64,000 nucleotides of DNA from Candidatus Marinacidobacterium sp. (GCA_965204755.1 OZ242011.1:1216001-1280000); one strand, 5' to 3'; numbered from the stretch's first letter, positions 26,321 through 37,707 are shown. Numbers and translations: made by a program. Notes: generated by a model from the letters alone, not told the origin.

Positions 26321-27004
26321 ATGGGAGCCGTCCGAGCCGCGCTGGCCATCGCCGGCAAGGACCTCCTCGGCGAGGCGAGGTCGCGGGAGCGGGTCCCGGC
26401 GATGCTGCTGTTCGCCGCGCTCATCCTGCTGGTGATGCACTTCGCCGCCGGGCTCGACGGAGCGGGCGCCGAACGGCTCGCGCCCGGCGTGCTCCAGACC
26501 GCCTTCCTCCTCGCCGGGACGCTCGGCCTCTACCGCAGTTTCGCCCCGGAAACGGAAGCCATGGCCCTCCACGGCCTGATGCTGGCCCCGGTGGACCGGG
26601 CCGCCATCTACTTCGGCAAGTTGCTCTCCGGCGCGGCGCTGCTGTTCTTCGTGCAGGTCCCGGTGGCCCTGCTCTACGAACTGCTGTTCGCCGTGAACCT
26701 TTCCGGCGGAAGCGCCGTAAGGGGCTCTCTCGCCATCGGTCTGGTCCTCCTGTGCGGCTCCCTCGGTTTCACCGCGCTCGGGGTCACGGTCGCCGCCATC
26801 TGCGCCTCCACCTCCGCCCGCGAGGTGCTGCTGCCGCTGCTGCTGTTCCCCCTCGCCGCCCCGCTGCTGATCGCCGGCGTCTCCGGTCTGGCGTCGGCGA
26901 TGGCCGGCGAACCGGTGTGGGAAGCGGCGCGCTTCCTGTTGCTGGCCTCGACGGCGTTCGTCTCGGTCTCCTGGATCGTCTTCGAGTTCGTCCTCGAACC
27001 GTGA
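26321..27004 (+). CDS. ccmB: Heme exporter membrane protein CcmB
   Basis: KDLLGEARSRE, APVDRAAIYFGK, REVLLPLLLFPL; about 6 TM helices. Confidence 0.9.
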   Translation: MGAVRAALAIAGKDLLGEARSRERVPAMLLFAALILLVMHFAAGLDGAGAERLAPGVLQTAFLLAGTLGLYRSFAPETEAMALHGLMLAPVDRAAIYFGKLLSGAALLFFVQVPVALLYELLFAVNLSGGSAVRGSLAIGLVLLCGSLGFTALGVTVAAICASTSAREVLLPLLLFPLAAPLLIAGVSGLASAMAGEPVWEAARFLLLASTAFVSVSWIVFEFVLEP

Positions 27005-29205
27005 CCGGCCGGCGCGCGCTGCTCGCGGCCCTCGCCGCCGGCGCCTGGAGCATCGCTTCGCCGGCGACGACGCAGCCCGCCCCCGAAGCCGACGCGGCGC
27101 CGGAAGAGCGCCGAGAGAAATCCGTACGGGCGCCGCTCGTCGAATCCCTCCCGAATCCGGACGGACGGCTCGACGAGCCGGTCTGGGAGACCGCCGCGCG
27201 GATCCGCGGCTTCACCCAGTCGGAGCCGGCCTACGGCGAACCGGCGACGCTGCCCACCGAGGTGCTCATCGCCTATACGCCGGAAGGGGTGATGGTCGGC
27301 GCCCGGCTCGACGATCCGGCGCCGGACGCGGTGGTGGCGAGGGAATACCGACGAGACGCGAACCTGGACTCCGACGACAACTTCATGGTCGTCTTCGACA
27401 CCTACCACGACCACCGGAGCGCGTTCTTCTTCACCACCAACGCCGTCGGGACCCGCCAGGACGGCCTGGTGCAGGGGGAAGGCGCCTATGTGAACACCGA
27501 ATGGGACGGCGTATGGACCGTGGCGTCCCGGCGCACCGACCGGGGCTGGGTCACCGAGATGGTGATTCCCTTCGAGACGCTCCGCTTCCCGGCGGGCGCT
27601 TCCGAGTTCGGCGTGAACTTCGGCCGGCGGGTGGCCCGCACCCGGGAAGAGAGTTACTGGGCGCCCATAGACCCGGGCTGGGGTTTCAACGCCCAGTGGC
27701 GGGTTTCCGCGTACGGCGGGCTCACCGGAATGGAGCGCGCCGAACCGGGAGGGCGCGTCAAACTCAAGCCGTTCGGCGTCCTCGGCGTCTCGGACGGCGA
27801 GGCAACCGAGCGCGAGGTCGTACCCGACCTCGGGCTCGACGCCAAGATCGCCCTGAGTTCCAACCTGAACCTGGACCTGACGCTGAACACCGACTTCGCC
27901 CAGGTGGAAGCCGACGAGCAGCAGGTCAACCTGACCCGCTTCGAGTTGTTCTTCCCGGAGAAACGCGAGTTCTTCCTCGAGAACGCCGGGCTGTTCGAAG
28001 TGGGGGAGCGGACGCGCCCGTTCGATCCCCGCGAGACGGCCCTGTTCTTCAGCCGCCGCATCGGGTTGTCCTCCGACGGGGACATCCTGCCGATCCTGGG
28101 CGGCGCGCGGGTCACCGGGAAAGTGGGGGCGACGGATGTGGGCGCCTTCCACATCCGCCAGGAAGCGCTCGACGGCGAACAGCCGGCGGTCGGGTATACC
28201 GCGGCGCGCCTGCGCCGCGATGTGCTGGCCCGGAGTTCCGTCGGCGTGCTCGCCCTCGACCGCACCGAGATCGGCGGCGAGTCGCACCGGGTCGCCGCGG
28301 CCGACTTCTCCTGGGCGCCGCACCGCGCGACCACGATCAGCGGGTTCGGGGCGCGGAGTTGGACTCCCGGCGCCGAGGGCCGGGAATCGGTCTGGGGCCT
28401 CCACGGGGAAACCACCACCGACCTCTGGAACCTCACCGCCGCCTACACCGACATCGGCGAGGGCTTCGAGTCGAAGATGGGATTCGTGCCGCGCACCGGC
28501 GTCCGCAAGGTGCGGGTGGGCGGCCTGTGGAAACCGCGCCCCGGCCGGTTCGGCATCCGGCAGGTCTTCTTCGGCCCGGATTACCTCCGGTTCACGAGAC
28601 CGGACGGCTCGGTCCAATCGGAGACCCTCGGCGTCGGCCCGTTCTTCCTGTTCAACGACGGCAGCAACCTGTTCTTCAGCGTGGAGCGCTCGGTGGAGGG
28701 GCTCGCGGAATCGTTCGAGTTGCGCGATGGCGTGGAGATCGCCGCCGGCGAATACCGCGCCGGCGCCGTGCTGTACATGTTGGACACCTCCGAGAGCCGC
28801 CGCGTCTCGTTCAACCTGTTCGGCATGAACCGGGGATTCTTCGGGGGCCGGCTGAATGTGTATTCCCCGGGAGTGGCGTTCCGCCCCCACCCCCGGATCC
28901 GGCTGCAGGTGAACTACTCGCGGAGCGAGGTGCGGTTGCCGCAGGAGAACGGGGACTTCGACACGAACCTGGTCGTCCTCCGCGGGTTGATCGCGCTCTC
29001 GCCGGACGCCTTCGTCCGCGGCCTGCTGCAGTGGAACGACGACGACGGCAACTTCTCCGGAAATGTGCAGTTGCGATGGACCTACGCCCCGGGAAGCGAC
29101 TTCTTCCTGGTGTACAACGAGCGCCGCCCTTTCGGCTCGCGCGCCTCGGACCCGTCGCGGCGGGAAGTGCTGGCCAAGGCCACTTGGTACTGGACTCCCG
29201 GATGA
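27001..29205 (+). CDS. CBM9-like sugar-binding domain plus DUF5916 outer-membrane beta-barrel protein
   Basis: PDGRLDEPVW, FDTYHDHRSAFFFTTNAVG, LTLNTDFAQVEADEQQVNLTRFELFFPEKREFFLE, LFFSRRIGL; aromatic C-terminus. Confidence 0.8.
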   Translation: MTGRRALLAALAAGAWSIASPATTQPAPEADAAPEERREKSVRAPLVESLPNPDGRLDEPVWETAARIRGFTQSEPAYGEPATLPTEVLIAYTPEGVMVGARLDDPAPDAVVAREYRRDANLDSDDNFMVVFDTYHDHRSAFFFTTNAVGTRQDGLVQGEGAYVNTEWDGVWTVASRRTDRGWVTEMVIPFETLRFPAGASEFGVNFGRRVARTREESYWAPIDPGWGFNAQWRVSAYGGLTGMERAEPGGRVKLKPFGVLGVSDGEATEREVVPDLGLDAKIALSSNLNLDLTLNTDFAQVEADEQQVNLTRFELFFPEKREFFLENAGLFEVGERTRPFDPRETALFFSRRIGLSSDGDILPILGGARVTGKVGATDVGAFHIRQEALDGEQPAVGYTAARLRRDVLARSSVGVLALDRTEIGGESHRVAAADFSWAPHRATTISGFGARSWTPGAEGRESVWGLHGETTTDLWNLTAAYTDIGEGFESKMGFVPRTGVRKVRVGGLWKPRPGRFGIRQVFFGPDYLRFTRPDGSVQSETLGVGPFFLFNDGSNLFFSVERSVEGLAESFELRDGVEIAAGEYRAGAVLYMLDTSESRRVSFNLFGMNRGFFGGRLNVYSPGVAFRPHPRIRLQVNYSRSEVRLPQENGDFDTNLVVLRGLIALSPDAFVRGLLQWNDDDGNFSGNVQLRWTYAPGSDFFLVYNERRPFGSRASDPSRREVLAKATWYWTPG

Positions 29206-29261
29206 GCCGCCGACCGCCGCGGCGCGGGGCCGAACGCCGGCCCCCCGGCTAGACTCTCCGC

Positions 29262-30314
29262 GTGCAGCGGCCCCGCCGACCGAAGGCCGGTCAGACCCGA
29301 AGACCGCTCCCGGCGGCGCTGCCCGCCAAGGCCTTGGTCGCCGGGGCGCTGGCCGCGCTCGGCCTCGCTCCGGGCGCGCCCCGAAGCGAGGCGTACCGCC
29401 TCTACGACAACGGGGCCATCGACTATGTGGTCGCCTCGGACGAAGCCGTCCGTTGGGCGCCGAACATCTGGGGACCGGGCTCGAACCTGTCGTTCGGCGT
29501 CGCGGACTCCCCCGAATGGGCGGCGATCTTCGGTTCGACGGCGCAGTTCATCTCCGCGATCGAAGAGGGGCTCGCCCGGTGGGGGGACATCGAGACGGCG
29601 GATATCCGCTGGAGCGTTTCGGGAACGACGGGAACGCCGCAGGGCGCCTGGACGCGCGACGGGGCCAGCACCGTATTCCTCAACACCGCCGGGAACGAAT
29701 ACCAACGGGGCGCCGGCGTGTGGTTCGCGCGCGACCGGTCGCGCGCCGTCTGGGACATCACCGAATGCGACATCGGCGTCCCGCGGTCGTGGCGCTCCGA
29801 ACTCCAGGGCGGCGGGGGCCCCTTCGCCGCAGGTGAATTCAGCAAGTGGTTCGGCTACTGCCTCGGGCTGGGCGCCTCCGCCCGGCTGCCGTCCGCCCCG
29901 AGTCTGGACGGTTTCGGGACGCCGTGGACCCCGACCTCCGACCGGGACACCGGCGCCTCGCTCCTCCGCCCCCGGAGCGGCTGGCGCGAGTCCGTCGGCA
30001 GCATCTCCGGTTCGGTCGAGTCCGACGGCGAGCCGGTGTCCTACGCCCATGTCTGGGCGTTTCGGACGAACGGCTCGAACGGAGTCGGGAACCCGGTCGG
30101 AGCGTTCGCGAACCGCTCGGGCGCCTTCATGATCGAGGGGCTCCCGCCGGGCGACTATGTGCTGTGGGCCCACCCGATCAACGGCTACGACAATCGGCTG
30201 GCCGGCGCGGGGATCGTGGCCGATGTGAGGGACGCCGTCCTCGCGCTCCCGGTGACCGTCACCGCCGGAGGGACCGCCCGCGGACACCGAATCTCGATGC
30301 AGCGAGGCCGTTGA
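29262..30314 (+). CDS. Secreted matrixin-like pseudo-protease plus carboxypeptidase-regulatory-like domain (module 1, gene A1)
   Basis: Signal ending SEA-YRLYD; aligns by eye with the HExxH paralogues but has SKWFGYCLGLG in place of THELGHCLGLAH; C-terminal GSISG...GAFMIEGLPPGDYVLWAHP. Confidence 0.75.
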   Translation: MQRPRRPKAGQTRRPLPAALPAKALVAGALAALGLAPGAPRSEAYRLYDNGAIDYVVASDEAVRWAPNIWGPGSNLSFGVADSPEWAAIFGSTAQFISAIEEGLARWGDIETADIRWSVSGTTGTPQGAWTRDGASTVFLNTAGNEYQRGAGVWFARDRSRAVWDITECDIGVPRSWRSELQGGGGPFAAGEFSKWFGYCLGLGASARLPSAPSLDGFGTPWTPTSDRDTGASLLRPRSGWRESVGSISGSVESDGEPVSYAHVWAFRTNGSNGVGNPVGAFANRSGAFMIEGLPPGDYVLWAHPINGYDNRLAGAGIVADVRDAVLALPVTVTAGGTARGHRISMQRGR

Positions 30315-30319
30315 CCGGG

Positions 30320-30901
30320 ATGGCGTCCTTCCCTCCGCCCGGAGCGCGCGCCGCTCGGTTCCGCGGGCGCCGCGGCCGACCCGGTCCGCTCCTCCCGCTC
30401 CTTCTCGCGCTCCCGCTCGCCGGCGGCCTCCTCGGATGCGGCGATTCCACTTCGACGACGCCCGGCGGGCCTGACCCCGCCCCGCCGCCCGATCCGTCCG
30501 GCCCCTCGCCGCCCCCGACGCCGACGCGGCTGCCGGCGGTCATCGGCAACCCCTGTCCGGGAGTCGTCGTCCGAAGCGACCCGCCGACCGCGAGCGGCGA
30601 CACCGTGCTGGCGCAGCAACTCGTCATCGAATGGGAGAACCGCTCCGGCGGCGCCGCTTTCACTTGGGCCGGGCCCTACGAGGTCGTCCCGAACCCCGAC
30701 CCGGAACAACCACCGACGCTGGATGTCGCCCTCTTCGACTGGAGCGTCGAAACCACGGCGACGGTCACGCGGCACACCTTCGGAGTCGGCTGGCCGAGTT
30801 CGGCGGAACTCCGGCTCGACCTCGGTTCGGGCGGCGCCGGGTGCGAGACCCCCACCCTCGTTTGCGCCGCTAGCGGTTGCGAGTTGAGGCGGCGGTCGTG
30901 A
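30320..30901 (+). CDS. Lipoprotein with a Pro-rich linker and a 4-Cys beta domain (module 1, gene B1)
   Basis: Lipobox LAGGLLG-C; domain NPCPGV...RHTFGVGWP...GCETPTLVCAASGCELR. Confidence 0.75.
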   Translation: MASFPPPGARAARFRGRRGRPGPLLPLLLALPLAGGLLGCGDSTSTTPGGPDPAPPPDPSGPSPPPTPTRLPAVIGNPCPGVVVRSDPPTASGDTVLAQQLVIEWENRSGGAAFTWAGPYEVVPNPDPEQPPTLDVALFDWSVETTATVTRHTFGVGWPSSAELRLDLGSGGAGCETPTLVCAASGCELRRRS

Positions 30902-32550
30902 GACTTCGGCGCCTCACCGGGCGAGCCGGCCGGCGGGAGCGGGGCGCCCGGGCGGCCGACTTCCTCCGCCTCGGCCGGGTCGCGGCCGCGGCCGCCGGCG
31001 CCCTCCTCGCGCTCGGTTCCGCGGAGGCCTACCGGTTCTTCGCCGGGACGGACCGGGTCCAGCCCTTCCTCAGCGGAAGCCTCCGCGGCGCGGCGGACGC
31101 CGTGCGCTGGTCGTCGGAGAGTTGGGCCCCCGGCGCCACGCTGACCTGGGAGATCGCGTCGGATCCGGACTTCGCCGACCTGTTCGGCGGCGCGGACCGC
31201 GCGCTGCCGTACTTCCGGGAAGCGCTGGCCCAGTGGTCGGAGATCCCGAACGCCGACATCCGCTGGAGCGCCGCCTCGTCCGTCGGCGCGCCGGTCAACG
31301 ACGAAACCGAAGAAACGCTCCAGGACGGCCGCAACACTTTCTGGATCGACGGGGAGTCGGCGGCCGGGGGGTACGCCTCGCTGTGGGTGGAGCGCGGGGG
31401 CGCGGGCGAACCGTGGGAGTTGTTCGAGTGCGACTTCGCCCTCGGCAGTTGGGTCATCAACCCCCGGCAGGACGTCCTGGAAGAACTGCGGGCCGAAGCC
31501 GTGGCGGTGATCACCCACGAACTCGGCCATTGCCTCGGCCTGGCGCATGCCGCCTCGATGTCGGCCACCGGCCGGCGGCGGCAGGAACTCTTTCGCTCCG
31601 AAGAACAGCCCACGACCTACGAACACCCGTTCGACCCCTCCATGTCCTACGGCATCGCTCGCACGGAGCGGCCGTTCATCTCCGCGGACGACATCGTCGC
31701 CGCCTCGCTGCTGCGCCCGGCCCCCGGCTGGCGCGCGGGAACCGGGGAGATCTCCGGTTCGCTCCGCGCCGGCGGGGAACCCGCGCCGTGGGTCCACATC
31801 TGGGCGCTGCCGGTGGGCAGCGACGACCCGCTCTGGAATCGCGTCGGCGCATTCAGCGACGAGAACGGGGAGTTCGTGATCGAGGGGCTCGCCCCCGGCG
31901 AGTACTTCCTCTGGGCCCACCCGGTCGTGCGCCAGGCCGCCCACGGCCTGCTCCTGACGAACGGCGCCCCGGTGGACCTCGACGACACCCTGATGGGGTA
32001 TCCGGTCCGCGTGAGCGCGGGGCAAACCGCCGGCCCCGTCGCCTTCGCGATGCGCATCGGCCGCACCGGCCGGAGGCCGCCGGACCACGCTCGCGCGGCC
32101 GCGAGTCCGGGTTCCTCCATCGCCGGCGGGGCCTCACCCTGCACCGGGGTTCGCGTGAGCGCCACCGCGCCCTACCCGGCCGACGGCCCGCACGCCGCCA
32201 GCCAACCGGGCCAACTCCTCGGCGGCGACGCCTGGTTCACCAGCGAGTTGACGATGGAGTGGACGCCGGCGTCGGCCGGCGTCGCCGTCGACTGGACCGG
32301 CCTCTATCGCAACTGGCAGTACGAGTTCTTCCTGCAGCGCATCGTGTACATCACGCCCCCCCGCTCGGGTTCGCCCTTCATGGATCTCTCCCTCCCCCGC
32401 TGGGACGCGGAACGCGCGGGCGGCGGAGTGCGCCACACCGTGGAGGTCGTCTGGCCCGAGTCCGCGGAAGCCGGGCTCCGCTTCCGCGGCGGCAGTTGCC
32501 GCGGCGAGCGCACCGTGGTCTGCACCCGGAACGGCTGCGGCCTCAGGTAG
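30898..32550 (+). CDS. Secreted matrixin-family zinc metalloprotease plus carboxypeptidase-regulatory-like domain and 4-Cys domain (module 1, gene C1)
   Basis: HELGHCLGLAH, Met-turn DPSMSYG, GEFVIEGLAPGEYFLWAHP, C-terminal SPCTGV...VVCTRNGCGLR; GTGA overlap with B1. Confidence 0.85.
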   Translation: MRLRRLTGRAGRRERGARAADFLRLGRVAAAAAGALLALGSAEAYRFFAGTDRVQPFLSGSLRGAADAVRWSSESWAPGATLTWEIASDPDFADLFGGADRALPYFREALAQWSEIPNADIRWSAASSVGAPVNDETEETLQDGRNTFWIDGESAAGGYASLWVERGGAGEPWELFECDFALGSWVINPRQDVLEELRAEAVAVITHELGHCLGLAHAASMSATGRRRQELFRSEEQPTTYEHPFDPSMSYGIARTERPFISADDIVAASLLRPAPGWRAGTGEISGSLRAGGEPAPWVHIWALPVGSDDPLWNRVGAFSDENGEFVIEGLAPGEYFLWAHPVVRQAAHGLLLTNGAPVDLDDTLMGYPVRVSAGQTAGPVAFAMRIGRTGRRPPDHARAAASPGSSIAGGASPCTGVRVSATAPYPADGPHAASQPGQLLGGDAWFTSELTMEWTPASAGVAVDWTGLYRNWQYEFFLQRIVYITPPRSGSPFMDLSLPRWDAERAGGGVRHTVEVVWPESAEAGLRFRGGSCRGERTVVCTRNGCGLR

Positions 32551-32664
32551 CCGGAACCCCGGAGTTCGGTCGGCTTCATGGCGCGCCGACGGGTCGCCGA
32601 CCACCATCGGTCGGACGCCGCCGCGCCGGCCGGGGTTCGCCTTGGCGTCGGTAGAGTCCCGCCC

Positions 32665-33801
32665 ATGCGAGCGGAGGCGTCATCGCCGGGCGGGCGGAGG
32701 CGGATCCGCTTCCCCGGCTCGCTTTCATCCCCGCGCCCCGCCACGCGGGCGGCGGCCGCCCTGCTGGCGGCGGCGGTCGGCGCAGGCGCCTTCGGCCCCG
32801 CCGAGGCCTACCGCCTCTACGACCATGGCGCGGCGGACTCGGTGGTGACTTCCGCCGAGGCGATCGCCTGGGCGCCGGAAGTCTGGGGCCCCGGCGCGGA
32901 ACTCGAGTGGCGGAGGGAAGACCAGCCGGAGTGGGAAGCGGCGTTCGGCTCCGCCGACCGGGCCGGGGCGGTCATCGCAAGGGCCCTGGGCGCCTGGTCC
33001 GCCATTCCCGGCGCCGACATCCGGTGGTCGGAGGCGGCAACGGCGGCGCCGTTCATGGGGCGGTGGAACCGAGACGCCTCGAACCGGGTGTTCTTCTCCG
33101 CCGCCGGGTACGTAGGCGCCGGCGTCTGGTTCTCCCGCAGCCGGACCCGGCAGGTCTGGGAGATCAGCGAATGCGATGTGGCCCTGCCGTCGTCCTTGAC
33201 CCAGGACGGCCGGGATCCCGAGACTCTGGAGTCGCTCGCGATCGAAGCGCTCGCAGAGGCTTTCGGCGCTTGCCTGGGCCTCGGGTCTTCGGCCGAACCG
33301 CCGACCTCGGCGTCGGTCCGCGCGGCGGAACCGGAGACCGACGACCCGACCTCCCGCCTCACCGGTTTCCTGAGCGGCCCCCAAGTCGAGCGTCCGCTCT
33401 GGAGATCCCGATACGACCATGCCGTCGGCGCTTCGCTCCTGCGCCCCCGCGCCGGATGGCTGGAGACCGTCGGCAGCATCTCCGGCGCCCTGGAAGCCGA
33501 GGGGGCGCCGCTGGCCTACGCCCATGTCTGGGCCTTCCCGATCGGGGAAGGCGGTTTGACCGATCCGGTGGGCGCGTTCAGCAATCGCGCCGGCGAGTTC
33601 ATGATCGAGGGCCTGCGGCCCGGCCGCTACCTCCTCTGGGCTCATCCGATCAACGCGGACCTGCACCGGCTGCTCGGCGCCGGCGGCCGGACGGAGGTGA
33701 ACGACACTCTCCGGATGCTCCCGGTCCCGGTGGCTGCCGGGGAAGCGACCGGCGGCATCGTCCTCACGCTCGAACCGAACCGCGCGGCCCCATGGCGATG
33801 A
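32665..33801 (+). CDS. Secreted matrixin-like pseudo-protease (module 2, gene A2)
   Basis: AEA-YRLYD; zinc motif replaced by AEAFGACLGLG; clear paralogue of A1 (GASLLRP..GW...VGSISG, YAHVWAF); start 32665 or 32578. Confidence 0.75.
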   Translation: MRAEASSPGGRRRIRFPGSLSSPRPATRAAAALLAAAVGAGAFGPAEAYRLYDHGAADSVVTSAEAIAWAPEVWGPGAELEWRREDQPEWEAAFGSADRAGAVIARALGAWSAIPGADIRWSEAATAAPFMGRWNRDASNRVFFSAAGYVGAGVWFSRSRTRQVWEISECDVALPSSLTQDGRDPETLESLAIEALAEAFGACLGLGSSAEPPTSASVRAAEPETDDPTSRLTGFLSGPQVERPLWRSRYDHAVGASLLRPRAGWLETVGSISGALEAEGAPLAYAHVWAFPIGEGGLTDPVGAFSNRAGEFMIEGLRPGRYLLWAHPINADLHRLLGAGGRTEVNDTLRMLPVPVAAGEATGGIVLTLEPNRAAPWR

Positions 33802-34433
33802 CTGTTCCGATGACCGCCCCGAAACCGCGCCGGGCTTGGCCCGGGCGCCCCGGCGAGGCCTGCTCCCGACGCGGAACCCCCGACGCCGCCGCGCTGCTCG
33901 CCGCGTTCACGATCGCCGCCGGCTCGGCGGGGGCCCTCTCCTGCGGCGGCGAGTCGGGAACCGCCCCGGTCCCGGCCGCCGCCGGCGTCGCCCCGACGAC
34001 CCCGGCGCCGCCGTCGCCGGAACCACCGGCGCCGGAACCCGAACCGCCGCCGCCCGAACCGCCGGCGCTCCTGGGGAGCCCCTGCTACGGCGTCTCGGCG
34101 AGCGCGAACGCGCCCCGGCAGGTGGACGACTGGAATCGCGTGACGGTGGTCCTCGACTGGGACGACGCCGCATTCGCCGAGGGCTTCGAATGGGTCTCTC
34201 CGTACTTCGACTTCTCCCCCGGCAACTACGACGCGCGCGCAGCGCCGCCGGCCCTGGAGATGAGCCTCATGGGATGGGAAACGGCGCCGGTCGCGCCGAC
34301 GGTGACCCGCCACACGCTCGATCTCCTGTGGCCGCCGTTCCGCGAAGTCGGCATGCGGCTTCGTTCCGCCCGGGACGCCTGTCCCCTCCCGCTCCTGGTC
34401 TGCAGCGCCGAGGGCTGCGAACTCCGACCATGA
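33798..34433 (+). CDS. Lipoprotein with a Pro-rich linker and a 4-Cys beta domain (module 2, gene B2)
   Basis: Lipobox AGALS-C; SPCYGV...RHTLDLLWP...ACPLPLLVCSAEGCELRP; ATGA overlaps on both sides. Confidence 0.75.
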   Translation: MTVPMTAPKPRRAWPGRPGEACSRRGTPDAAALLAAFTIAAGSAGALSCGGESGTAPVPAAAGVAPTTPAPPSPEPPAPEPEPPPPEPPALLGSPCYGVSASANAPRQVDDWNRVTVVLDWDDAAFAEGFEWVSPYFDFSPGNYDARAAPPALEMSLMGWETAPVAPTVTRHTLDLLWPPFREVGMRLRSARDACPLPLLVCSAEGCELRP

Positions 34434-36037
34434 CCCGGGCATTCGCGCACCCTCGCCGGTCGGCGGCGCTCGGTTGGGCGGCGGCGGCGGTCCTGGCCGC
34501 CGGGTCCGCGGAGGCGTACCGGTTCTTCGACTCCCGGGGCGAAGACGCGCCGCTCCGGAGTTGGCGGCTCGTCGGCGCCGACGAGGCGCTCCGCTGGTCG
34601 GCGGCCGCCTGGGGGCCGGGGGCCGCGCTGGTTTGGGAGGTGGCGCCGGATCCGGACTTCGAGGGCCTCTTCGGCGGGGCGTCCGGTGTCCTTCCGCACC
34701 TGCAGCGGGCTCTCGCCTCCTGGTCGGGTCTCCCCTCGACGGACATCACCTGGACCGCCTCCCTCCCCGACGAAGCGAACCACGAGTTCGCGGAGGCGGA
34801 CGGCCGCAACACCTTCTTCCTCGACGCCGAGTCCGGCGCCGGCGGCTACGCCGCGCTTTGGAGCCGGAGGAACGAGGAGGACCTCTGGGAACTCGTCGAA
34901 TGCGACTTCACGCTCGGGAGTTGGGCCGCGCGGCCCCGGCAGGACGCCCGCGACGAGACGCGCCGTCTCGCTTCGGCTGTCGCGACGATCGTCCACGAAC
35001 TCGGCCACTGCATCGGGCTCGCCCACGCCGGCACGCTGTCCCTGCTGGGGCGGCGCGGACAGCCGGTGCTGGGCCACCGGATCCAACCGGTGGAACTCAT
35101 CCATCCCCGGGATCCGGCGATGTCCTACGGCCGCTCCCAGCGGGACCCCGCGGCCGTGCCCGACGACGACGCGGTCGGCGCTTCCCTGCTCCGCCCCGCG
35201 GCCGGCTGGTGGCCGCGAACCGGGTCGATCTACGGGAGGCTCCACACCGACGGCGACCCGGCGCCCTGGGTCCAGGTATGGGCCGCGCCGACCGGAAGCG
35301 ACCATCCGCTCCGTGACCGCGTCGGCGTGTTCACCGACGAACGGGGGCAGTTCCGCCTCGAAGGGCTCCCCCCGGGGGACTACCTGCTCTGGGCGCACCC
35401 GCTGGTGTCAAAGGATGCCCACTTCCTGCTGGGCGCGAACGGCGCGCCGCTCGACCTCGACGACACCGTGCTGGGGCGCCCGGTGCGGGTGCGCGCCGGG
35501 CAGTACGCGACCGGGGTCGAGATCCCGCTGCGCATCGGCCGCGAGAGCCGGCCGCTCCCGGACGCTCCGCCTCCGGCCGGGCCGGCGCCGCTCCTGCCCG
35601 CCGACGGTTGGAGCGTTCCCTGCCCCGGGATCCGCGTCCGCGCCGGGCGCCCCTACCCGGCGGACGGCCCCCACGGCGCGTCCGAGCCGGACCCCGGCAT
35701 CGGCGGCGATGTCTGGTTGACGACCGAGTTGGTCGTCGAGTGGGCGGCGGACGCCGAGGGCGTCGTCTTCGACTGGGCCGGGCTCTATCGGGACTGGCGG
35801 GTGCCCTACTGGCGCCGGAGGCCCATCCGGGAAGCGCCGCCGCGCGCCGGGGCGCCCTACTTCGACCTCGCCATCCCCGAATGGGAGGTGGCGGAAGCCG
35901 GGGAGACCGTCCGCCACACGCTGGTGGTGGACTGGCCGGAATCCGCCGAGGCGGGCCTCCGCTTCCGGTCGGCGTCCGGCGCATGCGGCGACCGCCCGAC
36001 CTTCGTCTGCCGCGCCGACGGCTGCGGCCTCCGGTAA
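34430..36037 (+). CDS. Secreted matrixin-family zinc metalloprotease plus carboxypeptidase-regulatory-like domain and 4-Cys domain (module 2, gene C2)
   Basis: HELGHCIGLAH, DPAMSYG, GQFRLEGLPPGDYLLWAHP, VPCPGI...FVCRADGCGLR; start ATG 34430. Confidence 0.85.
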   Translation: MTRAFAHPRRSAALGWAAAAVLAAGSAEAYRFFDSRGEDAPLRSWRLVGADEALRWSAAAWGPGAALVWEVAPDPDFEGLFGGASGVLPHLQRALASWSGLPSTDITWTASLPDEANHEFAEADGRNTFFLDAESGAGGYAALWSRRNEEDLWELVECDFTLGSWAARPRQDARDETRRLASAVATIVHELGHCIGLAHAGTLSLLGRRGQPVLGHRIQPVELIHPRDPAMSYGRSQRDPAAVPDDDAVGASLLRPAAGWWPRTGSIYGRLHTDGDPAPWVQVWAAPTGSDHPLRDRVGVFTDERGQFRLEGLPPGDYLLWAHPLVSKDAHFLLGANGAPLDLDDTVLGRPVRVRAGQYATGVEIPLRIGRESRPLPDAPPPAGPAPLLPADGWSVPCPGIRVRAGRPYPADGPHGASEPDPGIGGDVWLTTELVVEWAADAEGVVFDWAGLYRDWRVPYWRRRPIREAPPRAGAPYFDLAIPEWEVAEAGETVRHTLVVDWPESAEAGLRFRSASGACGDRPTFVCRADGCGLR

Positions 36038-36528
36038 CCGCGAAGACCACGCGCGCGGCCCGCCGGACGGCGAGCCTTCGATCTCGGCGATCCCTCCGGG
36101 GGTCCGCGCCGAATGGCCCGACGCGGCCGGGCGACGGGCGAGTGGTTACGATGCCGGCATGTCGGCGGTACGCCTGCGCAGAGTGGCCGCGGAGGTCGCC
36201 GAGGCGCTGAGGCGCCTCGCCGCCCGGCGCCACCGGTCGTCGCCGGGACGGGCGCTCCGGCTCATCACCGTTCGGACCGGCCGCTCTTCGTCCTGGAGTC
36301 GCGAGGAGATCTACGGCCCCGACGCGCGGTGAAGTCCGGTTCCCGGACGCAGTTGACCGCGACCGACGAATCCCGCGGGTTCGGCGCCGCCCGGCCCCTC
36401 CGGGCGTTCGACGCGCTGCGGCCCTTCGCCGGGCGGGCAGCCCCGCCCCGGCAACTCCCGCGCGGGGCGGAGAGGCGGGGGCGCGGTATTCTCACCGGCC
36501 GCCCCGCGAACGAATCAGGAGACCGGAG

Positions 36529-36978
36529 ATGGCCGCCGCCGAGAAGCCGAAGACCCTCAAGGACATCTGGTCCGAGCACAAACCCGACTTCTACCGGGAT
36601 GTGTATGCGAACCAGATGGAACTCCTGCTCGCGCACCTGAACAGCGAGCGGGCGCGGCAGTTGGCGGCCCGGCGAAAGGCGCGGCTCGGCGGCGGCGAGA
36701 ACGCGCGCCCGCCGGCGGTGTGCATCACCATGACGGCGGAACAGGTGCTCGACCTGCTGGGTCTCAAGGAGGAACAGTGGGAAGTCGTCGCCGACATGCT
36801 CCACGGCCTGAGCGAGTGTTCTCCGGCGGAGGTGCCGGAGGAAGTGAGCCGCGCCCGCTGCTTCCACCCGCTCTCGCTGGTCTCCGCCCCGAAGGATTTC
36901 GGCTCCGGCTCGGACCCGGTCCAGTTCATGGGCGCCGCCCTCGACCCGACCGCCGGCGAGGAGTCCCCGCCGGACTGA
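36529..36978 (+). CDS. Hypothetical cytoplasmic protein
   Basis: 149-aa ORF with AGGAG upstream of ATG, host-like codon usage, non-shadow composition. Confidence 0.65.
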   Translation: MAAAEKPKTLKDIWSEHKPDFYRDVYANQMELLLAHLNSERARQLAARRKARLGGGENARPPAVCITMTAEQVLDLLGLKEEQWEVVADMLHGLSECSPAEVPEEVSRARCFHPLSLVSAPKDFGSGSDPVQFMGAALDPTAGEESPPD

Positions 36979-37041: not shown

Positions 37042-37707
37042 TTACCGGGGCCGCTGCGCAGCCAGCCGGCGGACGGCGGTGGCCAAGCCCTCCAGGTCGC
37101 TGATCTGACTGGCCGCGCCGCCGGCCCCCTCCGAGAGCGCGAACCCGGGCAGGATCAACTCCTGCCCGTCGTCCCCCTCGCGGAGGTGGCGCTTTCCGGC
37201 TTCGCCGGCCACGACTCGTGGGAGCCGGCCGCTCTCGCCGGCGAGGAACACCAGCGCCCGCTCCCCCACCGAGAACCGCGGCGAGTGCGTGACCATCAGC
37301 CGCGTGTCACCGACGGTGCCGCCCGGAATCCGGAACCGCACCAGCGACTCGCCGCGGCCCTTGAACCGCCGATCGGTCCGCAGGGTGACCGTCGTGAAGA
37401 TCTGGCGGCGGTCCGGCGTCCAATCGGACCGCATGTCCAGGACTTCCCCGGCGACCACGGTCTGCGCGCGATCGAGGAGTTCCGGCAGGGACGGCGGCGC
37501 GTAGAGGCTCCGCACGCCCTCTCCGGCCACCGGCGCGCCGCCGTGGCGGTGCGGCCCCTGCTGCGCGGGCGGTTCGGCGCCCGACGCCGCGGGGAGCAGG
37601 AGCGCTCCGAAGGCCAGCCCCGCCCCCGCGGCGACCGGCAGAACACCCAAGCGACGGGCCGTGTTCCACGGCGCGGCGAAACGCCGCTCACCAGCGATTC
37701 CAGTCAT
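37042..37707 (-). CDS. Secreted hypothetical protein (OB-fold-like domain often seen at the N-terminus of acidobacterial secreted proteases)
   Basis: Signal peptide; SLPELLDRAQTVVAGEV...IFTTVTL...FKG...PGGTVGD...PRFSVGERALVFL. Confidence 0.7.
   Translation of the reverse strand: MTGIAGERRFAAPWNTARRLGVLPVAAGAGLAFGALLLPAASGAEPPAQQGPHRHGGAPVAGEGVRSLYAPPSLPELLDRAQTVVAGEVLDMRSDWTPDRRQIFTTVTLRTDRRFKGRGESLVRFRIPGGTVGDTRLMVTHSPRFSVGERALVFLAGESGRLPRVVAGEAGKRHLREGDDGQELILPGFALSEGAGGAASQISDLEGLATAVRRLAAQRPR

Follow-up and report, generated by a model that had tools for sequence, protein, structure and literature searches.

A split, catalytically dead counterpart of a metzincin protease is conserved beside its active paralogue in sponge-associated Vicinamibacteria

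Why would a bacterium keep, directly upstream of a secreted protease, a dead version of the same enzyme divided between two genes, and keep the arrangement twice? The question is raised by a 64,000-nucleotide stretch of the genome of Candidatus Marinacidobacterium sp. (GCA_965204755.1, OZ242011.1:1216001-1280000; hereafter the window), in which an open reading frame (ORF) listing and a start-codon scan place six genes on the plus strand between positions 29262 and 36037, in the order A1-B1-C1-A2-B2-C2. C1 and C2 encode active-type metzincins, A1 and A2 encode pseudo-metzincins, and B1 and B2 encode lipoproteins. With moderate confidence we propose that A and B together form a tethered dead twin that cooperates with C, and that A-B-C is a conserved split-twin module of a metzincin family that has expanded specifically in a lineage of sponge-associated Vicinamibacteria.

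The C proteins set the standard against which the other two are read. Their zinc motifs, HELGHCLGLAH in C1 and HELGHCIGLAH in C2, fit the metzincin consensus HExxHxxGxxH/D, from which none of the 32 aligned C-type proteins departs, and a Met-turn, DP(S/A)MSYG, lies downstream of the third His with its methionine (M249) also invariant; a preliminary description of this locus had quoted both motifs exactly. We built an AlphaFold2 model of C1 on 32 homologues (predicted local distance difference test, pLDDT, 79; predicted template modelling score, pTM, 0.80), and the pTM of this full-length model suggests a fixed packing of the domains in cis. In a structural search against representatives, residues 55-280 best match the matrix metalloprotease MMP-2 (1eak_A: Z 10.8, root-mean-square deviation (rmsd) 3.7, 147 aligned); MMP-2, -9 and -12 together span Z 10.2-10.8, and 8k5v_A reaches Z 10.2. 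Alkaline protease, a serralysin (1akl_A: Z 9.0, rmsd 4.8, 169 aligned), snapalysin (4hx3_A: Z 8.6, rmsd 3.6, 123 aligned) and archaemetzincin (Z 8.5) follow. A Foldseek search of the full C1 model against the PDB was uninformative, being dominated by Ig-like and Fab rows drawn in by two beta-sandwich domains.

Downstream of the protease domain, residues 283-389 of C1 match the transthyretin-like domain of carboxypeptidase D (5aq0_B: Z 6.5, rmsd 2.1, 80 aligned). The carboxypeptidase-regulatory-like domain named in the preliminary description has this fold match in its favour, while its Pfam scores fall short: A1, A2, C1 and C2 reach 18.6-30.6 bits on CarboxypepD_reg (PF13620), below its cut-off of 32.3, and a precomputed PF13620 match is present on many homologues. 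From sequence and model together, C is predicted to be an exported, active-type, MMP-like zinc endopeptidase of three domains, which we call P (protease), R (transthyretin-like) and D (a C-terminal four-cysteine domain).

C shares with the M10 matrixins (MMPs, karilysin) and the serralysins its zinc motif, Met-turn, fold, secretion and C-terminal accessory domains. Matrixins carry an N-terminal propeptide with a cysteine switch. In C, the signal peptide ends at AEA immediately before a conserved mature YRFF, with no Cys-containing pro-segment; since the signal peptide thus abuts the mature YR(F/L) N-terminus, C has neither propeptide nor cysteine switch. C differs further in an invariant Cys right after the second zinc His, accompanied by an ECD Cys, and in accessory domains that are transthyretin-like and four-cysteine rather than hemopexin or RTX. 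On Pfam Peptidase_M10, the scores of C1 (20.2 bits) and C2 (14.7 bits) both fall short of the gathering cut-off of 24, with the motif helix alone matched. Because this cut-off is missed and the propeptide is absent, we do not file C as a matrixin. A C-type profile run against PDB sequences gave a best E of 0.03, and Pfam and NCBIfam gave sub-threshold matches only on all six module proteins.

A carries P and R and stops before D. Its zinc site reads SKWFGYCLGLGAS in A1 and AEAFGACLGLGSS in A2, with the zinc ligands gone. The full HExxHxxGxxH motif is missing from all nine A orthologues, the first and third His being lost in 9/9, and the Met-turn is lost in A1 and A2 and kept as P(A/L)M in the basal A proteins of four other modules (G005b, G003, G018 and G043). 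What A retains is the R domain together with the paired Cys (ECD ... HC), and the clade has invariant motifs of its own, for example YxxxDxGxxD at the mature N-terminus. A profile of the nine A proteins finds 171 matches in all; among the best 120, 108 are short A-type clusters, none of which has the first His and 101 of which have lost the third as well. Of these 108, 47 keep xE..H like basal A and 40 have lost everything, like A1 and A2, while the 12 lowest-scoring of the 120 carry a complete zinc motif. These sequences indicate that the zinc site of A died once, by loss of the first and third His, and later eroded further.

B supplies the piece that A lacks. B1 and B2 each have a lipobox followed by about 40 Pro-rich residues, and a lipobox is present in all nine B proteins of intact modules (LLGC in B1, ALSC in B2, then ALSC, LLSC, ASSC, VLSC, GVSC, AASC and, in G018, CLAC); B is accordingly predicted to be lipidated and membrane-anchored. 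The last 140 residues of C align with the C-terminal 120 residues of B (BLASTP E 4e-9 to 1e-15), and all 23 aligned copies of this D domain keep its four Cys. A separate model of D, built on 23 sequences, shows a nine-strand all-beta fold (pLDDT 89) whose best matches are Ig-like sandwiches, with no convincing structural relative (best Z 7.3, for 6pnq_B, rmsd 3.1, 98 aligned; Foldseek best E 0.013). The preliminary description had read the locus in just these terms, as six closely spaced, mostly coupled genes in which A loses the zinc ligands and Met-turn and ends before the four-cysteine domain, and B is a lipoprotein joining a Pro-rich tether to exactly that domain; ORFs, start codons, overlaps, motif alignment, lipoboxes and D homology bear it out.

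A and C are plainly homologous (BLASTP E 1e-41 to 1e-49, 32-36% identity over about 330 residues), and the two copies in the window are well diverged (46% identity between A1 and A2, 53% between C1 and C2). In an IQ-TREE phylogeny of 31 P-R domains, which left out the fragments of a decayed module, a distant paralogue at 3079 kb and metagenome rows, all nine A genes form one clade (support 100/99) that is sister to 11 C genes (94/90). The two halves of this tree mirror each other, branching first to the G005a module and then to the 1-pairs and 2-pairs of the window's genome (G000) and a second genome of the same genus (G001), so the module was duplicated as a block before these two species split. 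A phylogeny built on 23 D domains repeats the pattern, with the nine B rows (94/93) sister to the 11 C rows (95/93) relative to D domains of other loci. Since A is sister to C, and the D of B is sister to the D of C, A+B is a split paralogue of C, gene for domain. The outgroup of the D tree holds both split and fused forms, which fits a fused or a split ancestor alike.

The A genes are also under constraint. Between G000 and G001, the ratio of non-synonymous to synonymous substitution rates (dN/dS) is 0.13 for A1 and 0.08 for A2 by maximum likelihood (ML), and 0.57 and 0.43 by NG86, next to 0.08 and 0.10 (ML) and 0.38 and 0.40 (NG86) for C1 and C2. Overall the ranges are 0.08-0.13 (ML) and 0.24-0.57 (NG86) for A and 0.08-0.13 and 0.27-0.40 for C, and the closest A pair (G018/G043) gives 0.10-0.24; these figures are rough, because synonymous sites are near saturation, but all lie well below 1. 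Population data agree. Contigs of four runs from four studies show 62 single-base differences, of which 40 are listed, 39 of them within genes; among those listed, synonymous and non-synonymous changes number 6 and 2 in A (5 and 1 in A1 alone), 6 and 2 in B and 18 and 5 in C, and the ratio in A departs from neutrality (binomial P = 0.006). No frameshift or stop occurs among the differences listed across the region in these four runs. With its catalytic residues lost, its fold kept and purifying selection acting on it, A has on present sequence evidence the character of a pseudoenzyme, and not that of a decaying gene.

The arrangement is not confined to the window. Screening with A1 (E 1e-40) and with C1 identifies nine intact A-B-C modules with a dead A: two each in G000 and G001, two at separate places in G005, and one each in G003, G018 and G043, that is, in at least six of 28 family genomes, six being the minimum this screen supports. 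A contig from a Joint Genome Institute metagenome (L052) carries a further complete A-B-C set, its A dead, along with a gene that we call E and describe below. C1 has relatives in every one of the 24 other family genomes searched, and the order's two other families give weak, partial C1 matches only (best E 2e-18). A scan of genome contigs with A1 itself finds only the same-genus genome, and a metagenome scan finds four loci. Near-identical DNA is present in runs labelled sponge metagenome and marine metagenome from eight studies, with no RNA run among the runs listed.

Within the modules the genes are tightly joined. Four of the five junctions from A1 to C2 are close: a 5-nt gap at A1/B1, a GTGA overlap at B1/C1 and an ATGA stop/start overlap at each of A2/B2 and B2/C2, with 114 nt between C1 and A2, or 27 nt if the alternative start of A2 is used. 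The stop/start overlaps imply co-translation. All ten intact A-B pairs have C downstream, and the linkage has persisted through two block duplications and in four genera or more. One module has decayed (L037, G018:C1:3282000-3289500), and there all three genes are broken together: A is spread over two frames, the terminal Cys motif is missing from the B-like D, and C is interrupted by one TGA and one TAG, beside an intact homologue of E. A twin that has been kept for so long, always with C, and that breaks when C breaks, is best read as a non-catalytic partner of C.

The same facts bear on a different reading, in which A-B has neofunctionalized into a tethered adhesin or other binding protein, perhaps one that recognizes host matrix, whose work has nothing more to do with C, its adjacency being a relic of duplication. 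The total loss of the catalytic site in A1 and A2 under continued purifying selection would suit such a protein, as would the A clade's private motifs and the occurrence of C without A-B. It is harder to square with linkage maintained through two block duplications across several genera, with co-translation, with the joint ruin of all three genes in the decayed G018 copy and with the absence of any intact A-B pair lacking C (0/10), A and D without C being seen only in two frameshifted metagenome contigs. We consider this reading unlikely.

How might A and B meet? We predicted the complex of mature A1 (9-row alignment) with the D domain of B1 (23 rows) alongside three controls. The pair reaches an interface score (ipSAE) of 0.87 (runs 0.81, 0.90 and 0.87), the best of the controls 0.01; contacts agree between runs by at least 81%, and partner pLDDT is at least 85. 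Of 80 solved complexes 58 attain that mark, as do 2 of 110 mismatched pairs, counts that hold only roughly here because custom alignments were used. The predicted interface pairs mature residues 281-288 of A, which form a strand of its transthyretin-like domain, with D strand 43-46, and it takes in A residues 166-179, a loop replacing the former third-His/Met-turn segment. Fold searches of D turned up no like complex, so recall of a solved structure is unlikely, and the predicted A1-B1 complex is expected to resemble the fused form in C. A1 is thus predicted to bind the D domain of B1.

The preliminary description had read A+B as a split, dead, membrane-anchored mirror of C, had gone on to suggest a heteromer in which A and B serve C as anchor, inhibitor, decoy or specificity subunit, and had looked to four things for support: a single origin of the A genes, conservation of the A-B-C order elsewhere, dN/dS on A and a modelled A+B complex. 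We find one A clade, the order in other genomes of the family and in the metagenome contig, values well below 1 and a prediction far above its controls, and together the mirrored trees, selection, linkage and predicted contact support the split, dead, lipid-anchored mirror of C, kept by selection. The further suggestion, that A and B join C in a heteromer or anchor, inhibit or guide it, is more tentative.

With architecture, common descent, selection and conserved linkage established, we propose the following model. Each module would yield one soluble active protease, C, and one membrane-tethered inactive twin, A+B. B would provide D in trans to A, carried on a Pro-rich tether with a lipid anchor, and D would clamp A's R domain by strand pairing and by the loop at the former zinc site and Met-turn. 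The twin may then hold substrate, products or regulators of C, such as E, at the cell envelope without catalysis, while E probably supplies latency or inhibition for proteases that lack a propeptide.

E lies about 1 kb past C2. Homologues of E with 55-69% identity are the immediate neighbours of A in G005a, G003, G018, G043 and the decayed G018 copy, that is, at 5 of the 10 loci searched by tblastn, in addition to L052, and two E paralogues in the window's own genome adjoin other metzincin genes of the family. An E profile finds 10,991 clusters at 50% identity. Among the 150 best matches, all seven that are longer than 430 aa consist of an E domain followed by Peptidase_M10 (27-74 bits, above the Pfam cut-off), and judging from these matches E is a free-standing homologue of the domain that lies N-terminal to Peptidase_M10 in bacterial matrixins. 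Because E resembles this matrixin N-terminal domain and sits beside propeptide-less proteases, we infer that it is a candidate latency factor, acting in trans as a prodomain or inhibitor. Pfam matches none of 20 family members (E up to 5) and none of 60 distant ones (E up to 0.01), NCBIfam gives no match, and the profile run against PDB sequences returned chance ribosomal L35 rows only (E about 0.9).

By language-model features, the named clusters nearest to E are TIMP, NtA and NTR, at 0.80-0.88, below the 0.9 threshold for a lead. TIMP and NTR domains have an N-terminal Cys and conserved disulfides. E has no Pfam match and no Cys, and does not qualify as a TIMP/NTR module (PF00965/PF01759). 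Serralysin and Inh are a known protease/inhibitor gene pair. Like the inhibitor in snapalysin-sermetstatin (PDB 4hx3), E is a small secreted protein encoded beside metzincin genes, at three loci here and in other genomes; it differs from TIMP and the solved inhibitors in having no sequence match to them and no cysteine. One could extend the model to a full circuit in which C is soluble, the tethered dead A+B docks substrate or C or titrates C's inhibitor, and E is that inhibitor, prodomain-like and possibly TIMP/NTR-like. We regard this circuit, taken whole, as speculative and improbable; if true, it would be a prokaryotic counterpart of the animal network of MMPs, TIMPs and pseudo-proteases, operating in a symbiont within the sponge extracellular matrix.

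Several points weigh against the model. The putative tie of A and B to C comes from linkage, co-duplication and the one copy in which all three genes have decayed. The A-B prediction is of a kind that the halves of a split protein tend to pass, and speaks for a fit of the parts more than for their meeting in the cell; its interface positions show no extra conservation, with 18 of 47 sharing an A/C consensus versus 129 of 261 elsewhere. C-type genes occur without A-B in G016, as a tandem pair, and in G011. Basal A-type members that keep the Glu and second His may bind metal or a ligand. D is a generic beta-sandwich, so its fold gives no functional hint, and B could face the periplasm instead of the surface at which the preliminary description had placed the system. 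Lastly, the polymorphism counts are small and come from 40 of the 62 differences.

The locus also invites comparison with the potempins of Tannerella forsythia. According to PMC9890683, these small lipoproteins fold as five-stranded OB or eight-stranded up-and-down barrels and block an active enzyme at its active site; their genes lie directly upstream of those of secreted KLIKK peptidases, one of them MMP-like, with which they are co-transcribed, and the lipoprotein binds its peptidase-family partner. By analogy, B would be a membrane-anchored inhibitor of the downstream C that shields the envelope, and A a decoy or buffer for B. The B gene does lie immediately upstream of C with GTGA/ATGA overlaps, and a protease without a propeptide needs some latency mechanism. 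Here, however, the D of the lipoprotein is paralogous to the C-terminal domain of the protease itself, C already has a D in cis, and the predicted partner of B's D is the dead paralogue, contacted on the transthyretin-like domain and not in an active-site cleft. The modelled nine-strand, Ig-like D also differs in fold from the barrels described in that source, and potempin is absent among the listed fold matches of D. We judge an inhibitor role of this kind to be distinctly unlikely.

That the A genes are decaying pseudogenes or mis-called frames is scarcely conceivable: long spurious ORFs are common at the 72-76% G+C of the module DNA and the catalytic residues are gone, but the data contradict decay in the single origin of the A clade, its low dN/dS and mostly synonymous differences, the retained Cys pair and R domain, the 108 clusters of the same type in public data and the quite different, fragmented and stop-ridden look of the truly decayed module in G018.

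Returning to the dead twin as a partner of C, precedents for its parts exist. Pseudoenzyme partners of hydrolases include the active/inactive heterodimers of M16B and NlpD, a degenerate LytM lipoprotein that activates an amidase, its dead domain being lipid-anchored. In A+B, by contrast, the dead protein is itself soluble and its anchor would come from a second gene product, A+B copies the neighbouring active enzyme domain for domain in split form, and any regulatory effect is putative. As in iRhom/ADAM17, and as in the inactive metallopeptidase homologues covered in PMC11266112, a dead member of a peptidase family is kept by selection and would work through binding. In a term search of that 2024 review, metzincins are mentioned only for animal ADAMs, and the literature searched, supplements aside, describes no bacterial pseudo-metzincin that forms with a lipoprotein a split copy of its active neighbour.

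Bacterial pseudo-proteases have been little studied, and the module offers a natural, repeatedly duplicated pair in which one three-domain protein exists fused and active and also split and dead, both forms under selection. It is a clean system in which to ask what a dead protease is for and how recognition between domains survives gene fission or fusion. Neither the metzincin family, the four-cysteine domain nor the very large E family has a Pfam or NCBIfam model, and their association points to regulated extracellular proteolysis in sponge-associated Acidobacteriota. The features discussed are collected in Table 1.

Table 1. Genes of the split-twin modules and related loci. Coordinates of A1 to E are those of the window; the remaining rows give positions in the genome to which the window belongs.
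Feature	Coordinates	Strand	Description
A1	29262..30314	+	Secreted pseudo-metzincin, protease-like and transthyretin-like domains; zinc site SKWFGYCLGLGAS, no Met-turn
B1	30320..30901	+	Predicted lipoprotein: lipobox LLGC, Pro-rich tether of about 40 residues, four-Cys beta-sandwich D domain
C1	30898..32550	+	Secreted active-type metzincin (HELGHCLGLAH, DPSMSYG), transthyretin-like domain, D domain; start codon GTG, TTG at 30877 as alternative
A2	32665..33801	+	Second pseudo-metzincin, zinc site AEAFGACLGLGSS; ATG at 32578 as alternative start
B2	33798..34433	+	Second predicted lipoprotein: lipobox ALSC, Pro-rich tether, D domain
C2	34430..36037	+	Second active-type metzincin (HELGHCIGLAH, DPAMSYG), transthyretin-like domain, D domain
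E	37042..37707	-	Secreted, 221 aa, no Cys, no Pfam match; about 1 kb past C2
E paralogue	1124249-1124827	-	Adjoins another metzincin gene of the family
E paralogue	3078472-3079071	+	Adjoins another metzincin gene of the family
Split active P-R plus D-lipoprotein loci	1481905-1486418, 1586008-1588268, 2757746-2759988		Loci L005-L008, L015, L016
HQxxH dead paralogues	1126619-1127569, 3696607-3697554		Loci L048, L050; second gene after an active paralogue

A CcmB-like ABC-2 permease (26321-27004) and an 817-aa DUF5916 protein (26752-29205) are encoded directly upstream of A1. Both genes are syntenic in the same-genus genome, at 76-88% identity, with A, B and C at only 48-68%. A promoter and terminator scan of positions 28800-36800 gave no promoter-like and one terminator-like site, not above shuffled sequence. 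The only indel reported among the population contigs is an in-frame 3-base deletion in C1 at window position 31530 (run X15, depth 68.9 of 77.5), whose source may be a related strain.

At the G016 locus without A-B (L034, G016:C20:13500-23000), two fused C-type genes with active motifs stand in tandem, with no A or B within 9.5 kb; one of them reads HELGHCIGLEN, with Asn for the third His. The two frameshifted metagenome contigs (L053 and L055) show an A-like gene spread over two to three frames and then pieces of D, with no C within 1.1-1.6 kb downstream; they could be pseudogenes or assembly errors.

The whole genome, a single contig of 3.98 Mb, encodes 15 P-R domains at eight loci, seven D domains and three E proteins. 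At three loci outside the window the gene of an active P-R protease precedes that of a distinct lipoprotein with long repeats and a terminal D domain, so the split layout is common in this family and not tied to a dead protease. One of these long D-lipoproteins bears further C-terminal domains. A Calx-beta label given by eye to the repeats was dropped, as Pfam matched none of the three scanned. A second, independent dead lineage is also present, with HQLGHCLGLxH in place of the active motif: Glu is replaced by Gln, the three His and the Met-turn are kept, and its two genes form a clade of their own (100/99).

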